The notes under the pieces were generated by a model, which searched no databases, was not told the origin of the DNA, and saw only the letters and a list, made by a program, of their open reading frames with translations. 64,000 nt of DNA from Thiotrichaceae bacterium UBA4486 (GTDB lineage: Bacteria > Pseudomonadota > Gammaproteobacteria > Eutrophobiales > Eutrophobiaceae). The stretch lies in the NCBI GenBank assembly GCA_002389045.1, contig DGNS01000013.1, positions 155,523 through 219,522 on the forward strand, read 5' to 3'. The translations under genes and the position numbers were made by a program. Positions 46,549 to 54,079 of the stretch are shown piece by piece (positions within the stretch are counted from its first letter, which is position 1; each line of letters begins with the position of its first letter).

Positions 46549-47799
46549 TCAAGCGGCAGGCTCTGAAATCCTGTTACTGTTCCCGAAACACAGCTGCGCC
46601 GTGGTCAGCAGGTAAGCGATACTCCAGCCCAGCGCCGAAACCCACAGCAGCAGGACCTGCTCACCGTAGCCCAGTGCGGCTGCAAAGCGGGTCAGGGTGG
46701 CGAGGGTCATCATGATCAATGCCGGCGCCAGGAAACGGGAGGCGGACGGGTCCCGCTTCAGGCGCTGAAAATGTATTCGCGTCATTACGCAAATGGACAG
46801 TGTGCCGATGGCGCCTACCGTGATCAGGTGAATGGCCGGTACCGGCGATGTGCCGAAAAACAGAAGTCCACCGAGAAGTAACTGACCAAGCGCAAGCCAG
46901 CCGTAGCCGATGCCAAGACCAACGAGATCAGTACGATGCAAAAGGCCCCATAGTCGCCAGCGGTAAAGGCGTATGGCTGCAATCAATCCGGCGGCGATGA
47001 CTGCCGGCCCGGTTATGTATGTGCCCATGGGCACAAATACAGCCAGTACTGCCAGCATGTGTAACAGGATAAGCGCCGCTTCCAGTCGCGGTTGTACCCG
47101 CGCTTCAAGATTCATGCCCAGCCTGTAATAAGCACCGGCCGCTGCCGGCGCAATGACTCTTCCACCCATAAAGGACATCAGCAACGAAAGCAGGATAATC
47201 ATGGCCAGCAATAAACTGTAGCCAAGGGATACATGGCGACCATGAGCCGCCACTGTGTAGACGACAGGGACCGCGCACAGGGCGATCAGCAGGGGCTGGA
47301 TCATGCGGTTACGCCATTTTTTTGCGCTGCTGAACCTGGGCACCACGATTACTGCAAGCAGCAGTGCGAACAGTGGGGTGAGAATACCCGCTGCCAGACT
47401 GCCGGGTGCGAACAGGTAACTCAGCCGTGCAGCCAGCCATATGGCGCACAGTAACAGCAGGCGGGGCCTGTTGGTCGGGCCGAGCAGGTAACCTGCCACC
47501 AGGGCCAGGGCAAAACCGAACAACATCTCCCGTGCATGACCTGTACCGGCAAGGGCCGTCAAGCGGCCACCGGTCATGGCATATACGGATAACGGAACGA
47601 CAATCGCGGCATACAGTGACGCCGCCGGAAAAAACACCGTGTATGACTGGACTTTCGATCGCCGGTTTATTTGCCCGGCGGTTTTGTTGTTAGTTACGGG
47701 AGTGTTCATACAATGTGCACAGACAGTCTTGATGAATGAACCCATACTGCCTGAGCCGGTGCCATGGAAGCAATAAACTGAATTTTTATGATCTCGCAA
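46549..47799 (-). CDS. nnrS: NnrS family heme-copper membrane protein
   Basis: Polytopic protein of about 12 TM helices with the GHAREMLFGFALALVAGYLLG motif. The true start is probably an internal ATG (M19 or M32 of the 416-aa ORF). Confidence 0.82.
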   Translation of the reverse strand: MRDHKNSVYCFHGTGSGSMGSFIKTVCAHCMNTPVTNNKTAGQINRRSKVQSYTVFFPAASLYAAIVVPLSVYAMTGGRLTALAGTGHAREMLFGFALALVAGYLLGPTNRPRLLLLCAIWLAARLSYLFAPGSLAAGILTPLFALLLAVIVVPRFSSAKKWRNRMIQPLLIALCAVPVVYTVAAHGRHVSLGYSLLLAMIILLSLLMSFMGGRVIAPAAAGAYYRLGMNLEARVQPRLEAALILLHMLAVLAVFVPMGTYITGPAVIAAGLIAAIRLYRWRLWGLLHRTDLVGLGIGYGWLALGQLLLGGLLFFGTSPVPAIHLITVGAIGTLSICVMTRIHFQRLKRDPSASRFLAPALIMMTLATLTRFAAALGYGEQVLLLWVSALGWSIAYLLTTAQLCFGNSNRISEPAA

Positions 47800-48016: not shown

Positions 48017-48937
48017 TCAATACTGACCCTGCCAGCGGTAACCCTCACTGCCATGGTAGAATCCGTTGGCGTAGGGAAGAGAAGGTCCGTCCTCTTCCAG
48101 CCGGGTCATGGCTTCATCGGTCGATATGTCCTGGTTCAGCAATGCCCTGAAAACCCTGGCGGTAGCAACCATGTCATTGCTGTGCGGGGATATGCGAAAG
48201 GCGCCAATACCCAGACCCTGCATTTCAGGCAGCTCGCGCACCAGGTTGAGATAATTCCAGGACATTGTCTGCACACCGTTGATTGCCAGAAACGGTGAAC
48301 CGTTCATTGTTTTTAATTCCATCCCGTCAGGATCCTGCTCGCAGATGAAACCGCAATTATCCTTTACCCGATCATGCGCCCGGGCATGATAGCAACGCGC
48401 TGACAGCGCCAGTCCGATACGGCCGTAGACCTGAACTTCAAGGGAAATACCCAGCCTCGATGCGCCGGCACCCAGCACAAGCAGCGATTCATAAGGTAAT
48501 TCCGGTGGCAGGGTGAAGTGTGTTGCCCCTCTGGCAGCCAGTAATTCCAGTGTTTTTTCATTATAAACGTTGAGAAATGGCCCGATTCGATGCGCTTTGC
48601 CACGCAAAAAATTCAACGCCGCCGAATCATTGGCTTCGACAATCGTATCCGCCTGTGCGCACAATTCTTCGGTCAGCCTGCGTTCACGCACCAGCATGAT
48701 CTCCGCCAGGGTTGAAAATACCACGCGTTTTCCCGCCTGTTGCAGGCGTTCGATGACTTCATCGATATACGGTTTGAAAAAGGGTTCGCGTTTGGAGCAG
48801 ATAACCTCACCCAGGTAGACGGTATCCACGGGTGCTTCATCGGCGATACGGAAATAAAAGTCACGCTTTAGTTCGGCCGGCCAGTGAAAAAGAACCGGCC
48901 CCAGGGTCAACTCATGGCTCACGGGTTTCACCTCCAT
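48017..48937 (-). CDS. ubiV: U32-family protein UbiV (O2-independent ubiquinone hydroxylation)
   Basis: 306 aa. The N-terminus LTLGPVLFHWPAELKRDFYFRIADEAPVDTVYLGEVICSKR closely parallels E. coli YhbV/UbiV as I recall it. Overlaps ubiU. Confidence 0.85.
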   Translation of the reverse strand: MEVKPVSHELTLGPVLFHWPAELKRDFYFRIADEAPVDTVYLGEVICSKREPFFKPYIDEVIERLQQAGKRVVFSTLAEIMLVRERRLTEELCAQADTIVEANDSAALNFLRGKAHRIGPFLNVYNEKTLELLAARGATHFTLPPELPYESLLVLGAGASRLGISLEVQVYGRIGLALSARCYHARAHDRVKDNCGFICEQDPDGMELKTMNGSPFLAINGVQTMSWNYLNLVRELPEMQGLGIGAFRISPHSNDMVATARVFRALLNQDISTDEAMTRLEEDGPSLPYANGFYHGSEGYRWQGQY

Positions 48938-49947
48938 TTCTTGCCGGCGTAAGCGCCGTGAGATTGTTTATGACCCTCGGTGAGCGCCAGCAGATTGTCC
49001 ATTTGTAACTCTTCTCCGGCCAGAACACTGTCCACGGCCCGGCGCCACGAGGAAACCACTGTCTTGACATAGGCGCGCGAGCGCTGCCGCCCTTCGATTT
49101 TGAAAGCATTGACGCCGGCCTTTATCAAGTCGGGCAACAGGGTTGCAAGGTTCAGGCTCAAGGGCTCTTCGAAAGCGTAGTATCCCTGTTGCCTGTGCGG
49201 CGCCAGGTAACGTCCCTTGCAGATGGTCGGATAACCGGGACTTTGACCGCAGGGAAAACTGTCAATGGTAAAGATACCCAGCCTGGTCGTCAGGTTACGG
49301 TCCTTGTCTTCATCATATTTCACATGACTGGCGGGAGAACATACACCGTCCATATTCGTCGAATAGCCGGTCACATAGTTGGTCAGGCTGCAGCGGCCCT
49401 CAAACATCAAACCGTGATTGCCGAAGACAAAGCATTCAATTTCACAATCGATTTCCTGCTGCAGGGCCGTGATTTCCGGGAGCGTAAGGATGCGCGGTAA
49501 TACCACCCGCTTGACGGCGAATTCCTCGCAATAGTACCGGATCGCTTCGGCCGATGATGCGCCGGCCTGGACCGAGAGGTGCAGCCTTTGCCCGGGATGG
49601 CTGCTGCGGGCGTAATCGGCAACACCGATGTCGGCAATGATCAGGGCATCAACACCCGCCTCGACGCCGGTGTCTACCGCTTGTTCCCACAGCTCAAACT
49701 TGCCCGCGGGCGGAAAGGTATTGATCGCCAGCAGCACCCTGGCGCCGTGGTCATGGGCATAGGCCACGGCCTGTTTGAGTTCTTCCGGCGTGAAGTTGAG
49801 TCCGGGAAAGTTACGGGCATTGGTGGCATTGCGCAAACCGCAATAAACGGCGTCGGCGCCGGCATCCACCGCCGTTCGCAACGCCGCCGGTGTTCCGGCG
49901 GGACAGACCAGTTCCGGGCGTTTCAATGTGTCGTCAATCGATTTCAT
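48928..49947 (-). CDS. ubiU: U32-family protein UbiU
   Basis: 339 aa. LVCPAGTPAALRTAVDAGADAVYCGL...TNARNFPGLNF, ...YPTICKGRY... and ...FKIEGRQRS parallel E. coli YhbU/UbiU as I recall it. Confidence 0.85.
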   Translation of the reverse strand: MKSIDDTLKRPELVCPAGTPAALRTAVDAGADAVYCGLRNATNARNFPGLNFTPEELKQAVAYAHDHGARVLLAINTFPPAGKFELWEQAVDTGVEAGVDALIIADIGVADYARSSHPGQRLHLSVQAGASSAEAIRYYCEEFAVKRVVLPRILTLPEITALQQEIDCEIECFVFGNHGLMFEGRCSLTNYVTGYSTNMDGVCSPASHVKYDEDKDRNLTTRLGIFTIDSFPCGQSPGYPTICKGRYLAPHRQQGYYAFEEPLSLNLATLLPDLIKAGVNAFKIEGRQRSRAYVKTVVSSWRRAVDSVLAGEELQMDNLLALTEGHKQSHGAYAGKKWR

Positions 49948-50518
49948 GGATACGGATTTTTCTCATCATGGATAACAGATGTCTGCCCGGGGGGCCAAAT
50001 ACGTCGGCGGCATCATCAGCGATGCTGCTTTCCAGGTCATCCAGCGCATTGCGCAGGCAGACCACGATTTCCGTATCACCCTCGATCATTAAATCACGGG
50101 TAAAAAACAATGCGTCACCGTCCAGGTTGCCGTCGACCAGGTTGAGCAGGGTCAGGAATGTACCGGCAATACGCGCGTCGCAGCGTGGCAGGTTGCAGCG
50201 CCGACAGGCCCGTAACCCGGGTCTTTGCGGGTGTGGCCGCAGAACCAGTGCAAAAGGCAGATTCAGCGGGTCGATGATCAGTTGTTTGTCCTTGTGCTCG
50301 CCGATACGATCAAATAACTCCGGCCGGGTGCGGGCGATATGCCGGGCGATCCTGGCCAGCGCCGGTTGAATAATAAACAGGGGCACCGGGGCCAGCGCAC
50401 AGTTTACAACTGCAGAGGCGCGGTCCGGGTGTGGGTTTATTCTGGATTTGCTGGCTTGCGTAGCGTACACAAAATAACCATATACCGGCCCATGAGGGGA
50501 GTGAATGATCCAGGTCAA
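49934..50518 (-). CDS. ubiT: SCP2-domain ubiquinone biosynthesis accessory factor UbiT
   Basis: Contains an SCP2-like C-terminal core (DGDALFFTRDLMIEGDTEIVVCLRNALDD), as in YhbT/UbiT. Overlaps ubiU by 14 nt. The exact start is uncertain. Confidence 0.78.
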   Translation of the reverse strand: MTWIIHSPHGPVYGYFVYATQASKSRINPHPDRASAVVNCALAPVPLFIIQPALARIARHIARTRPELFDRIGEHKDKQLIIDPLNLPFALVLRPHPQRPGLRACRRCNLPRCDARIAGTFLTLLNLVDGNLDGDALFFTRDLMIEGDTEIVVCLRNALDDLESSIADDAADVFGPPGRHLLSMMRKIRIHEID

Positions 50519-50928: not shown

Positions 50929-50942
50929 TTGATTCAGATCAA
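50929..50942. promoter_or_regulatory. Consensus FNR box of a class II-type promoter upstream of nrdD
   Basis: TTGATTCAGATCAA is a perfect match to TTGAT-N4-ATCAA. TATAAT at 50965..50970 places the box centre about 32 nt upstream of the -10 centre, which puts it near -41.5. Confidence 0.75.
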
Positions 50943-51020
50943 TGCACAAGATATTGGGGTTGACTATAATTCCCGCTCGTCTGATCAGTCATTCAATAAT
51001 AATATCCGGGGGAAGTGACC

Positions 51021-53066
51021 ATGCTAGAGATAGACAGCCTGGCGGTATCCCAGCCGCCAAAATCTACATCGATTAACGAAATCGTCAAGCGTGACGGCAG
51101 CCGCGTTCGCTTCGAGGCGGACAAGATCCAGTCCGCCATTCAACGCGCCGGTCAGGCAACGGGCGAATTTGATGCAACAGTGGCGCGCGAACTGGCCCGC
51201 CAGGTGCTGGCGCGCCTTGAGGCGATGCAGCCGGCCCCGCTGACCATCGAGGCGATTCAGGACGTGGTTGAACAAACCCTGGTCGACAGCGATTTTTTCA
51301 AAACCGCCCGCGCCTACATTGTCTACCGCGAGCAGCACCGGCGCCTGCGTCAGGATCGCAAGACCCTGGTGGACGTGGAGAGCGCAATGAATGAGTACCT
51401 GAACCGCCAGGACTGGCGCATCAATGCCAACGCCAACCAGGGTTATTCGCTCGGTGGTCTGATTCTCAATGTGTCGGGCAAGGTGGTCGCCAATTACTGG
51501 CTCAGTCATGTCTATCCACCGGAGATCGGCGAAGCGCATCGCGAAGCCGATATTCATGTGCACGATCTGGACATGCTCTCCGGTTACTGCGCCGGCTGGT
51601 CGCTGCGCGTGCTGCTGCAGGAAGGGCTCAACGGCATCCCCGGCAAGGTCGAGGCCGGGCCGCCACGGCACCTGAGTTCGGCGGTCGGACAGATTGTCAA
51701 TTTCCTCGGTACCCTGCAGAACGAATGGGCCGGCGCCCAGGCGTTCAGTTCCTTCGATACTTACATGGCCCCGTTCATACGCAAGGACAACCTGGATTAC
51801 AGCGAAGTCCGGCAATGTATACAGGAACTGATTTACAACCTGAATGTACCCTCGCGCTGGGGTACGCAAACACCGTTCACCAATCTGACCTTTGACTGGA
51901 CTTGTCCGGAGGATCTGCGCGAACAGGCGCCGGTCATCGGTGGTGAGGAAATGCCGTTTACCTACGGTGAATTGCAACAGGAAATGGATCTCATCAACCG
52001 CGCCTACATCGAGGTGATGGCAGCCGGAGATGCCCGCGGCCGCGTCTTCACGTTCCCGATACCGACCTACAACATCACCCGGGATTTTCCCTGGGACTCC
52101 GAAAATGCCGATCGCCTGTTCGCCATGACCGCCCGCTACGGCTTGCCGTATTTCCAGAATTTCATCAATTCCGACCTGGAACCAAACATGGTGCGCTCCA
52201 TGTGCTGCCGGTTGCAACTTGATTTGCGCGAGCTGTTGAAGCGCGGCAATGGCCTGTTCGGCAGCGCCGAACAAACCGGTTCGCTGGGTGTGGTTACCGT
52301 CAACTGTGCGCGCCTGGGTTATCTTTACCGCGGTGATGAGGGCGGTCTTTATCGCCGCCTCGACGAGTTGCTGGAACTGGGCAAGCAGAGCCTGGAGATC
52401 AAGCGTAAGGTCATCCAGCGCCACATGGACGCCGGACTGTTTCCCTATACCCGGCGCTACCTCGGCACGTTGCGTAACCACTTCTCCACGCTGGGCGTCA
52501 ACGGCATCAACGAGATGATCCGCAACTTCACCGAAAATGCGCACGATATCACCAGCGAGTGGGGTTATGATTTCGCCGCCCGGCTGCTGGATCATGTGCG
52601 TGAGCGCATGGTGGCGTTTCAGGAAGAAACCGGTCATCTGTACAACCTTGAGGCGACTCCGGCCGAGGGCACTACGTATCGCTTCGCCCGCGAGGATCGC
52701 CGGCGCTATCCGGATATCCTGCAAGCAGGCACCGACGAGCAGCCCTACTACACCAATTCATCACAACTCCCGGTGGGTTTTACGGATGATCCGTTCGAAG
52801 CCCTGGAACGCCAGGATGAACTGCAGCGCAAGTATACCGGCGGTACGGTGCTGCACCTGTACATGAGCGAGCAGATCTCCAGCACCGATGCCTGCAAACG
52901 CCTGGTCCGTCGGGCCCTGGAACGCTTCGGCCTGCCGTACATCACGGTGACACCGACATTTTCCATCTGCCCGAAACACGGCTATTTGTCCGGTGAGCAT
53001 GAGTTCTGCCCGCGTTGCGATGAGCAGATTCTGGCTGACAAGCAGGCGGCACTGGCGAAGCACTGA
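51021..53066 (+). CDS. nrdD: Anaerobic (class III) ribonucleoside-triphosphate reductase large protein, ending after the Zn-ribbon and lacking the glycyl-radical motif
   Basis: N-terminal ATP-cone (IVKRDGSRVRFEADKIQSAI), a class III RNR body, and a C-terminal CPKH...CPRC motif. The ORF opens at a GTG at 51015, but I chose the ATG at 51021, which has GGGGGAAG upstream. No R-x-x-G-Y motif appears before the stop. Confidence 0.9.
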   Translation: MLEIDSLAVSQPPKSTSINEIVKRDGSRVRFEADKIQSAIQRAGQATGEFDATVARELARQVLARLEAMQPAPLTIEAIQDVVEQTLVDSDFFKTARAYIVYREQHRRLRQDRKTLVDVESAMNEYLNRQDWRINANANQGYSLGGLILNVSGKVVANYWLSHVYPPEIGEAHREADIHVHDLDMLSGYCAGWSLRVLLQEGLNGIPGKVEAGPPRHLSSAVGQIVNFLGTLQNEWAGAQAFSSFDTYMAPFIRKDNLDYSEVRQCIQELIYNLNVPSRWGTQTPFTNLTFDWTCPEDLREQAPVIGGEEMPFTYGELQQEMDLINRAYIEVMAAGDARGRVFTFPIPTYNITRDFPWDSENADRLFAMTARYGLPYFQNFINSDLEPNMVRSMCCRLQLDLRELLKRGNGLFGSAEQTGSLGVVTVNCARLGYLYRGDEGGLYRRLDELLELGKQSLEIKRKVIQRHMDAGLFPYTRRYLGTLRNHFSTLGVNGINEMIRNFTENAHDITSEWGYDFAARLLDHVRERMVAFQEETGHLYNLEATPAEGTTYRFAREDRRRYPDILQAGTDEQPYYTNSSQLPVGFTDDPFEALERQDELQRKYTGGTVLHLYMSEQISSTDACKRLVRRALERFGLPYITVTPTFSICPKHGYLSGEHEFCPRCDEQILADKQAALAKH

Positions 53067-53178
53067 CGCGGTTTGGTGAACGCCGCTGCATGGCCCGGCT
53101 GCATCGGCACAGAGAGATTTCCGGGATACGTTAAATAAAATCAAAGAGGGTTTTTTCACCTGAGGAGGTAACAAGACC

Positions 53179-53364
53179 ATGAACCAGCAACTACAACAAT
53201 CATGCACTGACACCATCCGGTTAAGTGACGAAGAGCGCCAGCCCTGCGAAGTGTGGACACGGGTCATGGGGTATCATCGTCCGGTGGCCTCTTTCAATAC
53301 CGGCAAGCAGGGTGAACATCATGAGCGCCGCCATTTCCGCGAGCAACCCACTGCAACCCTGTGA
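53179..53364 (+). CDS. Stand-alone NrdD C-terminal glycyl-radical peptide
   Basis: 61-aa ORF with its own GAGGAGG (53162..53168) 10 nt upstream of the ATG. It contains EVWTRVMGYHRPVASFNTGKQGEHHERRHF, which resembles class III RNR glycyl-radical C-termini (R-V-x-G-Y-x-R-P). Confidence 0.75.
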   Translation: MNQQLQQSCTDTIRLSDEERQPCEVWTRVMGYHRPVASFNTGKQGEHHERRHFREQPTATL

Positions 53365-54079
53365 ACAGTCCGGGCCGCCCACCCTGCGGGTGGGTGGCCT
53401 GACACCGCTGACGACGACGGATTACCCGGGACAACTCGCGGCAGTACTGTTTTGCCAGGGCTGCCCCTGGGCCTGTGGCTATTGTCACAATCCGCACCTG
53501 ATACCGGCCCGTTCGGACAACGGCCGGGACTGGGAACATATCACCGGGTTTCTGCAACGCCGCCGCGGCCTGCTCGATGCGGTTGTCTTCTCCGGCGGTG
53601 AACCGCTCTACCAGCGTGGCCTGGATACGGCGGTGACAATGGTCAGGGATATGGGATTTCGTGTCGGCCTGCATACCGGCGGCTCCTATCCGGATCACCT
53701 GCAACGCCTGTTGCCGCAACTGGACTGGGTAGGACTGGATATCAAGGCGCCGTTCGACCGTTACCCGCAGGTAACCGGCGTACCGGGCAGCGGAGAGCGT
53801 GCGCGAAGAAGTCTGGAGCACCTGCTGGCAAGTGACTGTGATTATGAAATTCGTACCACCGTTCATCCGCTGATTTTCAGCCCGTCCGGCTTGCGGGACC
53901 TGGCGCGGCAACTGGCGTCACTGGGTGTTCGGCATTATGTACTGCAGGCGTTTCGCGACACCGGTTGCATGAACAGCGCCTATCAACAGGTGTCGGCAAC
54001 ATCACTGCTGGATAGCGGGTTGCGTGATGAACTGCAGGGCCTGTTCGAAGACTTCACCATACGCGGACTTGCAGACTGA
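53321..54079 (+). CDS. nrdG: Anaerobic ribonucleotide reductase activating protein (radical SAM)
   Basis: I chose the ATG at 53321 (MSAAISAS...). The CQGCPWACGYCHN cluster motif follows a TTDYPG segment. It overlaps the 61-aa ORF by 44 nt in another frame. Confidence 0.9.
   Translation: MSAAISASNPLQPCEQSGPPTLRVGGLTPLTTTDYPGQLAAVLFCQGCPWACGYCHNPHLIPARSDNGRDWEHITGFLQRRRGLLDAVVFSGGEPLYQRGLDTAVTMVRDMGFRVGLHTGGSYPDHLQRLLPQLDWVGLDIKAPFDRYPQVTGVPGSGERARRSLEHLLASDCDYEIRTTVHPLIFSPSGLRDLARQLASLGVRHYVLQAFRDTGCMNSAYQQVSATSLLDSGLRDELQGLFEDFTIRGLAD

Follow-up and report, generated by a model that had tools for sequence, protein, structure and literature searches.

Class III ribonucleotide reductases (RNRs) are, in the textbook description, homodimers that carry a glycyl radical at the C-terminus of the catalytic chain, NrdD. 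The 64,000-nucleotide stretch of contig DGNS01000013.1 from Thiotrichaceae bacterium UBA4486 analysed here (the window) contains an nrdD gene that ends before the radical-bearing segment, followed by a 61-residue open reading frame (ORF) with the glycyl-radical motif and by nrdG, which encodes the radical S-adenosylmethionine (SAM) activase. The locus therefore raises the question of whether a one-piece gene has been broken, whether its parts are rejoined during expression, or whether the enzyme is composed of two subunits by nature. Since profile matches, comparative genomics, independent assemblies and RNA contigs all agree, we consider it very probable that the class III RNR encoded here consists of two subunits, the small one being translated on its own and bearing the radical, and that it is expressed from an anaerobically induced three-gene operon.

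The large and small reading frames of the nrdD locus

The large ORF (51021–53066, forward strand), assigned as the NrdD large subunit from its profile and fold matches, encodes 681 residues from an ATG at 51021, or 683 residues from an alternative upstream GTG at 51015. The encoded chain is composed of an ATP-cone, a catalytic barrel with a finger loop reading SMCCRL, i.e., the MCCR form of the finger-loop cysteine motif (MGCR or MCCR, as defined in PMC9669993), and a zinc ribbon at its end. The C-P-K-H...C-P-R-C pattern of this ribbon (C-x2-H...C-x2-C), present in fused and split relatives alike, would provide four metal ligands. A 15-residue tail (DEQILADKQAALAKH), free of cysteine, closes the chain beyond the ribbon, so that the C-terminus reads ...SICPKHGYLSGEHEFCPRCDEQILADKQAALAKH (...TPTFSICPKHGYLSGEHEFCPRCDEQILADKQAALAKH) before the stop codon, and the R-V-x-G-Y glycyl-radical motif was not found when sought in the large ORF. 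The intergenic spacer that follows is 112 nt long (53067–53178, read on the forward strand), and scans of it gave no match to an Rfam family and no terminator-like site. Within the spacer, the Shine–Dalgarno sequence GAGGAGG (53162–53168, forward strand) lies 10 nt 5′ of the ATG at 53179 that opens the small ORF (53179–53364, forward strand; 61 residues). The full product, MNQQLQQSCTDTIRLSDEERQPCEVWTRVMGYHRPVASFNTGKQGEHHERRHFREQPTATL, contains ...CEVWTRVMGYHRPVASFNTGKQGEHHERRHF and consists of a variable N-terminus and a conserved core (LSDEERQPCEVWTRVMGYHRPVASFNTGKQGEHHERRHF); Gly31 in its TRVMGY (RVMGY) sequence, encoded at 53269–53271, is the candidate radical glycine.

The third gene, nrdG (53321–54079, forward strand; 252 residues), encodes a radical SAM activase of the NrdG2 type (TIGR02495; 195.5 bits; cut-off, 131). 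Its ATG at 53321 is in frame with the NrdG homology, homologues align with the product from residue 1 at their own ATG, and the gene overlaps the small ORF by 44 nt. An interpretation made earlier from the DNA letters alone (the sequence-only reading) had described an NrdD chain ending after the zinc ribbon without the radical motif, the spacer, the small ORF with GAGGAGG at 10 nt, and the 44-nt overlap with nrdG, and every one of these features holds with its coordinates. A 284-residue ORF from a GTG at 53225 (53225–54079) is a mechanical upstream extension of NrdG that runs, in another frame, over most of the small ORF; gene callers that pick this ORF would mask the small gene.

The two products match the same profile models in different parts. 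The large ORF matched NCBIfam NF006126 (PRK08270) with 1154 bits (cut-off, 548) over model positions 3–653 of 684, Pfam NRDD (PF13597) with an E-value of 3e-174 over positions 2–531 of 562, TIGR02487 with 461 bits (cut-off, 326), and the ATP-cone family PF03477 with an E-value of 2.5e-23. The match of the small ORF is confined to the last 32–35 positions of the NRDD and PRK08270 models (531–562 of 562 and 649–683 of 684, respectively; E-value, 2.5e-8; above the Pfam gathering score). Because the coverage is complementary, the two ORFs together correspond to a single canonical NrdD in which the break falls after the zinc ribbon and before the glycine loop, and the earlier proposal that the 61-residue product is the missing NrdD C-terminus is borne out by these alignments. 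Among the hallmarks of a class III RNR, the NRDD barrel, the MCCR finger loop, the zinc ribbon and the adjoining NrdG are thus all found at the locus, and the RVxGY motif, expected on the barrel polypeptide, is found on the separate 61-residue ORF. Judged from the sequences, the locus appears to be a split RNR in the sense of two adjacent genes that jointly cover one catalytic chain and are conserved across species. Neither Pfam nor NCBIfam has a model dedicated to the small protein, and a sequence search of the Protein Data Bank (PDB) with it returned no match even at an E-value of 10.

GrcA and YfiD are autonomous glycyl-radical cofactors that repair pyruvate formate-lyase (PFL) cleaved by dioxygen. 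With this precedent, the occurrence of a stand-alone small protein with a glycyl-radical loop could also mean that the 61-residue protein is a GrcA/YfiD-like spare for a separate, complete enzyme, the large NrdD being inactive or supplied by another radical source. In a Pfam scan at E ≤ 0.1, however, the small protein matched PF13597 NRDD alone, with no match to Gly_radical (PF01228), the family of PFL and GrcA. Moreover, its gene sits between nrdD and nrdG, as it does in related loci, in Cupriavidus necator and in Pseudomonas aeruginosa; a one-piece NrdD occurs in none of the 120 nearest homologues; and loss of this class III RNR locus impairs anaerobic growth of both C. necator and P. aeruginosa. 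We therefore regard a spare for another enzyme as quite improbable. The comparison with GrcA/YfiD drawn in the sequence-only reading stands as far as a separate small glycyl-radical protein is concerned, and fails for the family and for the role of a spare part. Like GrcA/YfiD, the small protein would offer a stand-alone glycyl-radical loop to a radical SAM activase and complement a large protein in trans; unlike them, it belongs to another sequence family, and whereas GrcA is a spare for an enzyme with its own glycine, the large subunit in the window is without one. Since the large subunit never occurs with its own glycine, the small protein would be an obligate subunit. A GrcA-type small protein of phage T4, Y06I/vs.6, has also been noted (PMC1524935).

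Conservation of the arrangement and integrity of the sequence

A scan of species-representative genomes (one genome per species) gave at least 590 confirmed stretches that encode the small protein, the best 80 of which, with 81 small ORFs, were compared in detail. In 78 of these 80 loci, nrdD ends with a stop codon 22–388 nt before the WTRVMGY motif, the small ORF comes next and nrdG usually follows, so the two-gene arrangement anticipated from the window is present in nearly all loci inspected; their NrdD proteins share 69–86% identity over the last 200 residues, except at one locus. Relative to nrdD, the small ORF may occupy each of the three frames, with a shared frame in about one third of the loci, as expected if the frame is irrelevant. 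It opens with ATG in 80 of 81 cases, has a median length of 63 residues, and is preceded by a Shine–Dalgarno-like sequence, typically AAGGAG, in 78 of 81. Overlap with nrdG was seen in 35 of 66 loci, with 15 more genes no further than 30 nt away, the nrdG start sites in these loci being estimates, and translational coupling of the small ORF with nrdG appears plausible from the gene layout. Across the 80 related loci, differences in the core of the small ORF number 465, 354 and 1645 at codon positions 1, 2 and 3, respectively, and the core is 82% identical in amino acids as against 74% in nucleotides; the third-position excess, far beyond chance, indicates purifying selection in the frame of the small ORF.

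The proteins themselves give a matching picture. The small protein has 5220 related clusters in the protein collection, the best 120 of which are all stand-alone proteins of 55–85 residues; the N-terminus of the small protein (~20 residues) is poorly conserved, and its L-S/T-D-D/E-E-R motif is conserved. The 120 closest homologues of the large subunit (78–100% identity), including those of Thermithiobacillus, Thioalkalivibrio, Sulfuriferula and Gallionella, all end 12–24 residues past the last zinc cysteine with a conserved tail, D-E/Q-E-L/I-L/I-A-R/K-K, and the glycine motif was found in none of them. Because of this complete absence from the large homologues, the small protein appears to be the sole carrier of the radical glycine.

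A stop codon soon after the zinc ribbon, with the missing segment beyond it, has the look of a nonsense or frameshift error, and nrdD frameshifts do occur at one related locus, that of Massilia sp. H-1. A one-piece nrdD might thus have been broken by an error of sequencing or assembly, or have recently become a pseudogene by mutation. Contigs assembled from independent public runs of two studies, a biofilm metagenome (84x depth) and a landfill metagenome, are nevertheless identical over 52700–53700, which confirms the split against the assembly error that the sequence-only reading had asked to have excluded. A ~97% related strain keeps the arrangement with 28 substitutions and a net in-frame insertion of 3 nt. 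An accident of this kind is also at odds with the recurrence of the layout, in every relative frame and with variable spacers, in 78 of 80 species genomes, with the conserved start codon and Shine–Dalgarno sequence, with the selection on the small ORF, and with the lack of any fused form among the 120 closest homologues, and we give it a negligible chance. In the ~97% strain (run X8), the 3-nt insertion falls at 53206–53209, where the small ORF encodes its variable N-terminus, and an A>G substitution at 53321 changes the nrdG ATG to GTG and also alters the overlapping codon of the small ORF.

Assembled metatranscriptome contigs of the biofilm study span 52865–53575, from the 3′ end of nrdD to a point within nrdG, and so include the spacer and the small ORF in full. 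They are colinear with the DNA, spacer included, with zero differences and zero joints; the region is therefore transcribed as it stands, unspliced. Two of the contigs begin inside the spacer between nrdD and the small ORF, at 53092 and 53094, and in one run (53092–53317 region) the contig depth is 22.9 over the small ORF versus 6.5 on the 5′ part of nrdD. These values could reflect an internal 5′ end or more RNA for the small ORF, contig ends and depths being weak evidence.

The colinear RNA also bears on the possibility that the two ORFs are joined in expression, by programmed frameshifting, ribosomal bypassing, read-through, splicing of the spacer from the RNA, or protein trans-splicing. 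Such joining has a background in this family: a group I intron interrupts nrdD of T4, inteins are common in NrdD genes, and many NrdD representatives (in the P0121–P0270 list) are 1000–1900 residues long and match the query in 2–5 separate stretches, as expected of intein-containing nrdD genes. One fused relative (P0270) also retains a split-like linker, CPQCDAAWLGKQPMPRALPDEARTRCEFWTRVMGYHRP. In the loci compared here, however, the frame of the small ORF is random with respect to that of nrdD and the spacer lengths vary widely, the small ORF retains its own ATG and Shine–Dalgarno sequence, and no Rfam intron or other RNA family was detected in the 112-nt spacer. Furthermore, the 15-residue tail of the large ORF and the ~20-residue, poorly conserved N-terminus of the small one are far too short for the halves of a split intein. 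Joining of the two products is thus very improbable. At the Massilia sp. H-1 locus (L054, 3700–4147), the tail of nrdD runs in frame into the small ORF, and nrdD itself has several frame changes; this locus and P0270 could represent re-fusion events or poor assembly.

Structure model, proposed mechanism and anaerobic context

With AlphaFold2 (AF2), the two chains were modelled as a single end-to-end fusion from an alignment in which fused relatives were combined with close homologues of the large subunit, the C-terminal part being aligned on the fused relatives because MAFFT misplaced the free small proteins. The joined model has a mean predicted local distance difference test score (pLDDT) of 86 and a predicted template-modelling score of 0.79; without an alignment, the joined sequence gave a pLDDT of 36. 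The closest folds in the PDB belong without exception to class III RNRs (9d3x, 8p23, 4coi and 1h7a; source organisms S. thermophilus, P. copri, T. maritima and T4), and the segment past the glycine (small-protein residues ~33–58) has a pLDDT of 63–88. The AF2 model thus supports the predicted fold and the placement of the C-terminal part. A continuous helix at residues 664–688 of the joined chain is probably an artefact of the joining.

In the mechanism that we propose for the two-subunit enzyme, the 681-residue NrdD would provide allosteric control through the ATP-cone, the substrate barrel with the finger-loop cysteines, and the zinc ribbon, and the 61-residue protein, translated from its own Shine–Dalgarno sequence and ATG, would be the detached C-terminal glycyl-radical segment. 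By the established chemistry, NrdG would use SAM and an electron to take a hydrogen from Gly31. The small subunit would then take the position normally held by the C-terminal glycyl-radical domain and insert its glycine loop into the barrel beside the MCCR finger loop, and the glycyl radical would give rise to a thiyl radical that starts nucleotide reduction, as in the one-piece enzymes. In the latter, contact with NrdG requires the glycyl-radical domain to flip out of the core (PMC12662201). With a free small subunit, this step would become a dissociation and re-association, i.e., a binding equilibrium. Dioxygen cleaves glycyl-radical enzymes at the glycine; damage would therefore probably destroy only the 7-kDa peptide, which could be replaced without remaking the 76-kDa subunit. 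Repair after damage by dioxygen or nitric oxide (NO) is a reasonable hypothesis for the role of the split, with dosage control or the freeing of the large-subunit C-terminus as alternatives.

Several points weigh against this picture. In the joined model, the glycine loop (joined residues 691–713) and the finger loop (398–415) have pLDDT values below 50, the low value for the glycine loop arising in part because the alignment misplaces the EVYSRV (EVW/YxRV) stretch, and the predicted docking of the radical loop rests on homology and not on the AF2 model. That the small protein is made, binds to the large subunit and bears the radical is likewise predicted from sequence, and the RNA data are assembled metatranscriptome contigs from libraries that can contain DNA. 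In addition, split forms are also found in metagenomes of apparently anoxic habitats, so that a rationale of repair after oxygen damage need not be general.

The region upstream of nrdD is consistent with anaerobic control. A perfect FNR/Anr/Dnr-type box, TTGATTCAGATCAA (50929–50942, given without strand), which exactly matches TTGATNNNNATCAA, abuts the −35 element of the predicted nrdD promoter in a class II arrangement; the promoter itself, sigma-70-like TGCACA-16-TATAAT (50943–50970, forward strand), is predicted from a consensus match alone, at 10 of 12 positions. A similar Dnr box, TTGACGCAGATCAA, is found in the nrdD promoter of P. aeruginosa (PMC5645315). Divergent from nrdD, on the reverse strand, are an SCP2-domain ORF (49934–50518) and two U32-peptidase ORFs (48928–49947 and 48017–48937), next to which lies an NnrS gene (46549–47799, reverse strand). 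The divergent genes may share the intergenic region containing the FNR box with nrdD. We take the SCP2/U32/U32 trio to resemble UbiT/UbiU/UbiV of oxygen-independent ubiquinone synthesis, and with this assignment the neighbourhood would fit an anaerobic, NO-exposed life.

Distribution, known systems and significance

The two-gene form is found in well-studied organisms. Megaplasmid pHG1 of C. necator H16 encodes a 676-residue 'ribonucleoside triphosphate reductase', a 66-residue protein and NrdG, with a 17-nt overlap with NrdG, and the 66-residue protein is the one that carries the RefSeq label nrdD. The calculated mass of the 676-residue NrdD is 76.2 kDa; the abstract of the 1999 study by Siedow and colleagues is said to give NrdD this same mass, suggesting that the small gene was not counted. 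A later paper, citing that study, states that C. necator depends on nrdDG of pHG1 to grow anaerobically by denitrification (PMC2864759). In P. aeruginosa, a 675-residue NrdD ending in ...CPKCDEELLQRSTPKSCCGGCGG is followed by a 43-nt spacer with AAGGAG and a 48-residue ORF, MNPNQLPEGQRQRCEVWTRVMGYHRPVAAFNAGQQSEHRERRHFRETR, which joins the 232-residue nrdG by an ATGA overlap. The operon has been treated as nrdDG, and an nrdD deletion mutant was complemented by a plasmid stated to carry the nrdDG genes (PMC4860495); if the complementing insert was a contiguous genomic region, it includes the small ORF. For glycyl-radical formation and NTP reduction under anoxia, the genetics of C. necator and P. 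aeruginosa thus lend indirect support. A collection of plasmids and chromids contains 161 records with the small gene, mainly from Ralstonia, Bradyrhizobium, Cupriavidus and Paracoccus, in which it is annotated inconsistently, as nrdD, as a hypothetical protein, or not at all. Some split large subunits have Cys-rich C-termini (for example, KSCCGGCGG, KQEQCKACKG and KSCCNCETEKTI), namely those of P. aeruginosa (L162, 3380–3457) and of representatives P0126, P0129, P0133, P0135, P0138, P0154, P0172 and P0238; these tails recall the redox-active C-terminal tails of class I and class II RNRs.

The survey of this NrdD family covered its 150 best representatives, taken at the level of 50% identity clusters. 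The glycine motif lies within 60 residues past the zinc ribbon in 54 of them, whereas 67 end 9–60 residues past the ribbon with the motif absent. When more distant C-termini that lack the motif served as seeds for a scan of metagenomes, 51 loci proved to be fused and ~19 split; in the split ones, a downstream ORF carries a motif of the EVYSRIVGYYR type. Two split subtypes can be discerned. In the first (L082, L084, L089, L091, L092, L096, L097, L107 and L144), the tail of the large subunit is a K/E-rich, heptad-like helix, and the small protein, of about 150–210 residues, combines an N-terminal helix with the glycine segment and, in many cases, a thioredoxin-like TCPNCPP domain; these sequences suggest coiled-coil docking and a built-in reductant. 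In the second, a large subunit ending in CPHxH is accompanied by a small protein of 49–60 residues. The fission of NrdD would accordingly represent either several independent events or an old event with repeated re-fusions.

From this distribution, a broader reading can be put forward, tentatively and with the balance somewhat against it. Fission of the radical segment would be adaptive and recurrent, making the radical carrier a subunit that can be exchanged and dosed on its own, is charged by NrdG while free and, when oxidatively cleaved, is swapped with the 76-kDa catalytic subunit retained, and the freed C-terminus of the large subunit would have gained roles in some lineages. Such new roles may include the Cys-rich redox tails, the coiled-coil docking helices and the thioredoxin-like domains on the small subunit.

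The two-subunit enzyme can be set against three known types of RNR. It shares with the canonical one-piece NrdD (E. coli, T4, T. maritima, P. copri and S. thermophilus) the ATP-cone, the barrel, an MCCR-type motif, the zinc ribbon, the RVxGY loop with its conserved tail, an adjoining NrdG and anaerobic control of the FNR type. Unlike in the canonical form, the chain is interrupted after the zinc ribbon and before the glycine loop, the small protein has ~20 extra N-terminal residues and the L-S/T-D-D/E-E-R motif, and a short conserved tail of its own closes the large subunit. The split class II RNR, NrdJa/NrdJb, resembles it in that a catalytic chain is encoded by two adjacent genes, with the cut near a C-terminal zinc-finger region (PMC4520616, PMC9669993), and both split enzymes co-occur in P. 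aeruginosa. NrdJa/NrdJb nevertheless belongs to another RNR class with another chemistry, and NrdJb provides redox and zinc-finger domains, not the radical site. A large catalytic and allosteric subunit with a separate subunit for the stable radical is also the plan of class I RNRs, in which, however, the radical is tyrosyl or metal-centred, resides in a ferritin-like protein, and acts through proton-coupled electron transfer over ~35 Å, whereas the 61-residue peptide of the window presumably puts its glycine directly into the barrel.

A 2015 paper (PMC4520616) described class III enzymes as homodimers and NrdJa/NrdJb as the unique split RNR of a free-living organism. The latter statement is contradicted, and would be corrected, by a split class III RNR, the class III enzyme of P. 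aeruginosa itself being split. No description of a split class III RNR was found in the searchable full-text literature, though an earlier mention in subscription papers is possible; the small genes are already present in databases under generic names, and the two-subunit form itself appears undescribed as far as this literature goes. Large phylogenies of the family aligned the barrel alone and filtered sequences by length (PMC9531940, PMC9669993).

The two-subunit form is widespread, as it occurs in hundreds of species genomes, and about half of the nearest 150 family representatives are without the motif; among its carriers are two pathogens, P. aeruginosa and, of plants, Ralstonia solanacearum, as well as Bradyrhizobium and C. 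necator, a model denitrifier. With the small gene labelled nrdD, called hypothetical or left uncalled, the finding has consequences for both the annotation and the reconstitution of these enzymes. The split enzyme also offers a natural system for studying how the activase encounters the glycine loop and how the radical domain docks, and it allows the replacement of damaged radical modules to be tested, which will be of interest to the RNR and glycyl-radical fields. If the reading of the radical carrier as an exchangeable subunit is true, class III RNRs would gain an alpha/beta logic like that of class I, and the class III enzyme of P. aeruginosa might deserve biochemical re-examination.

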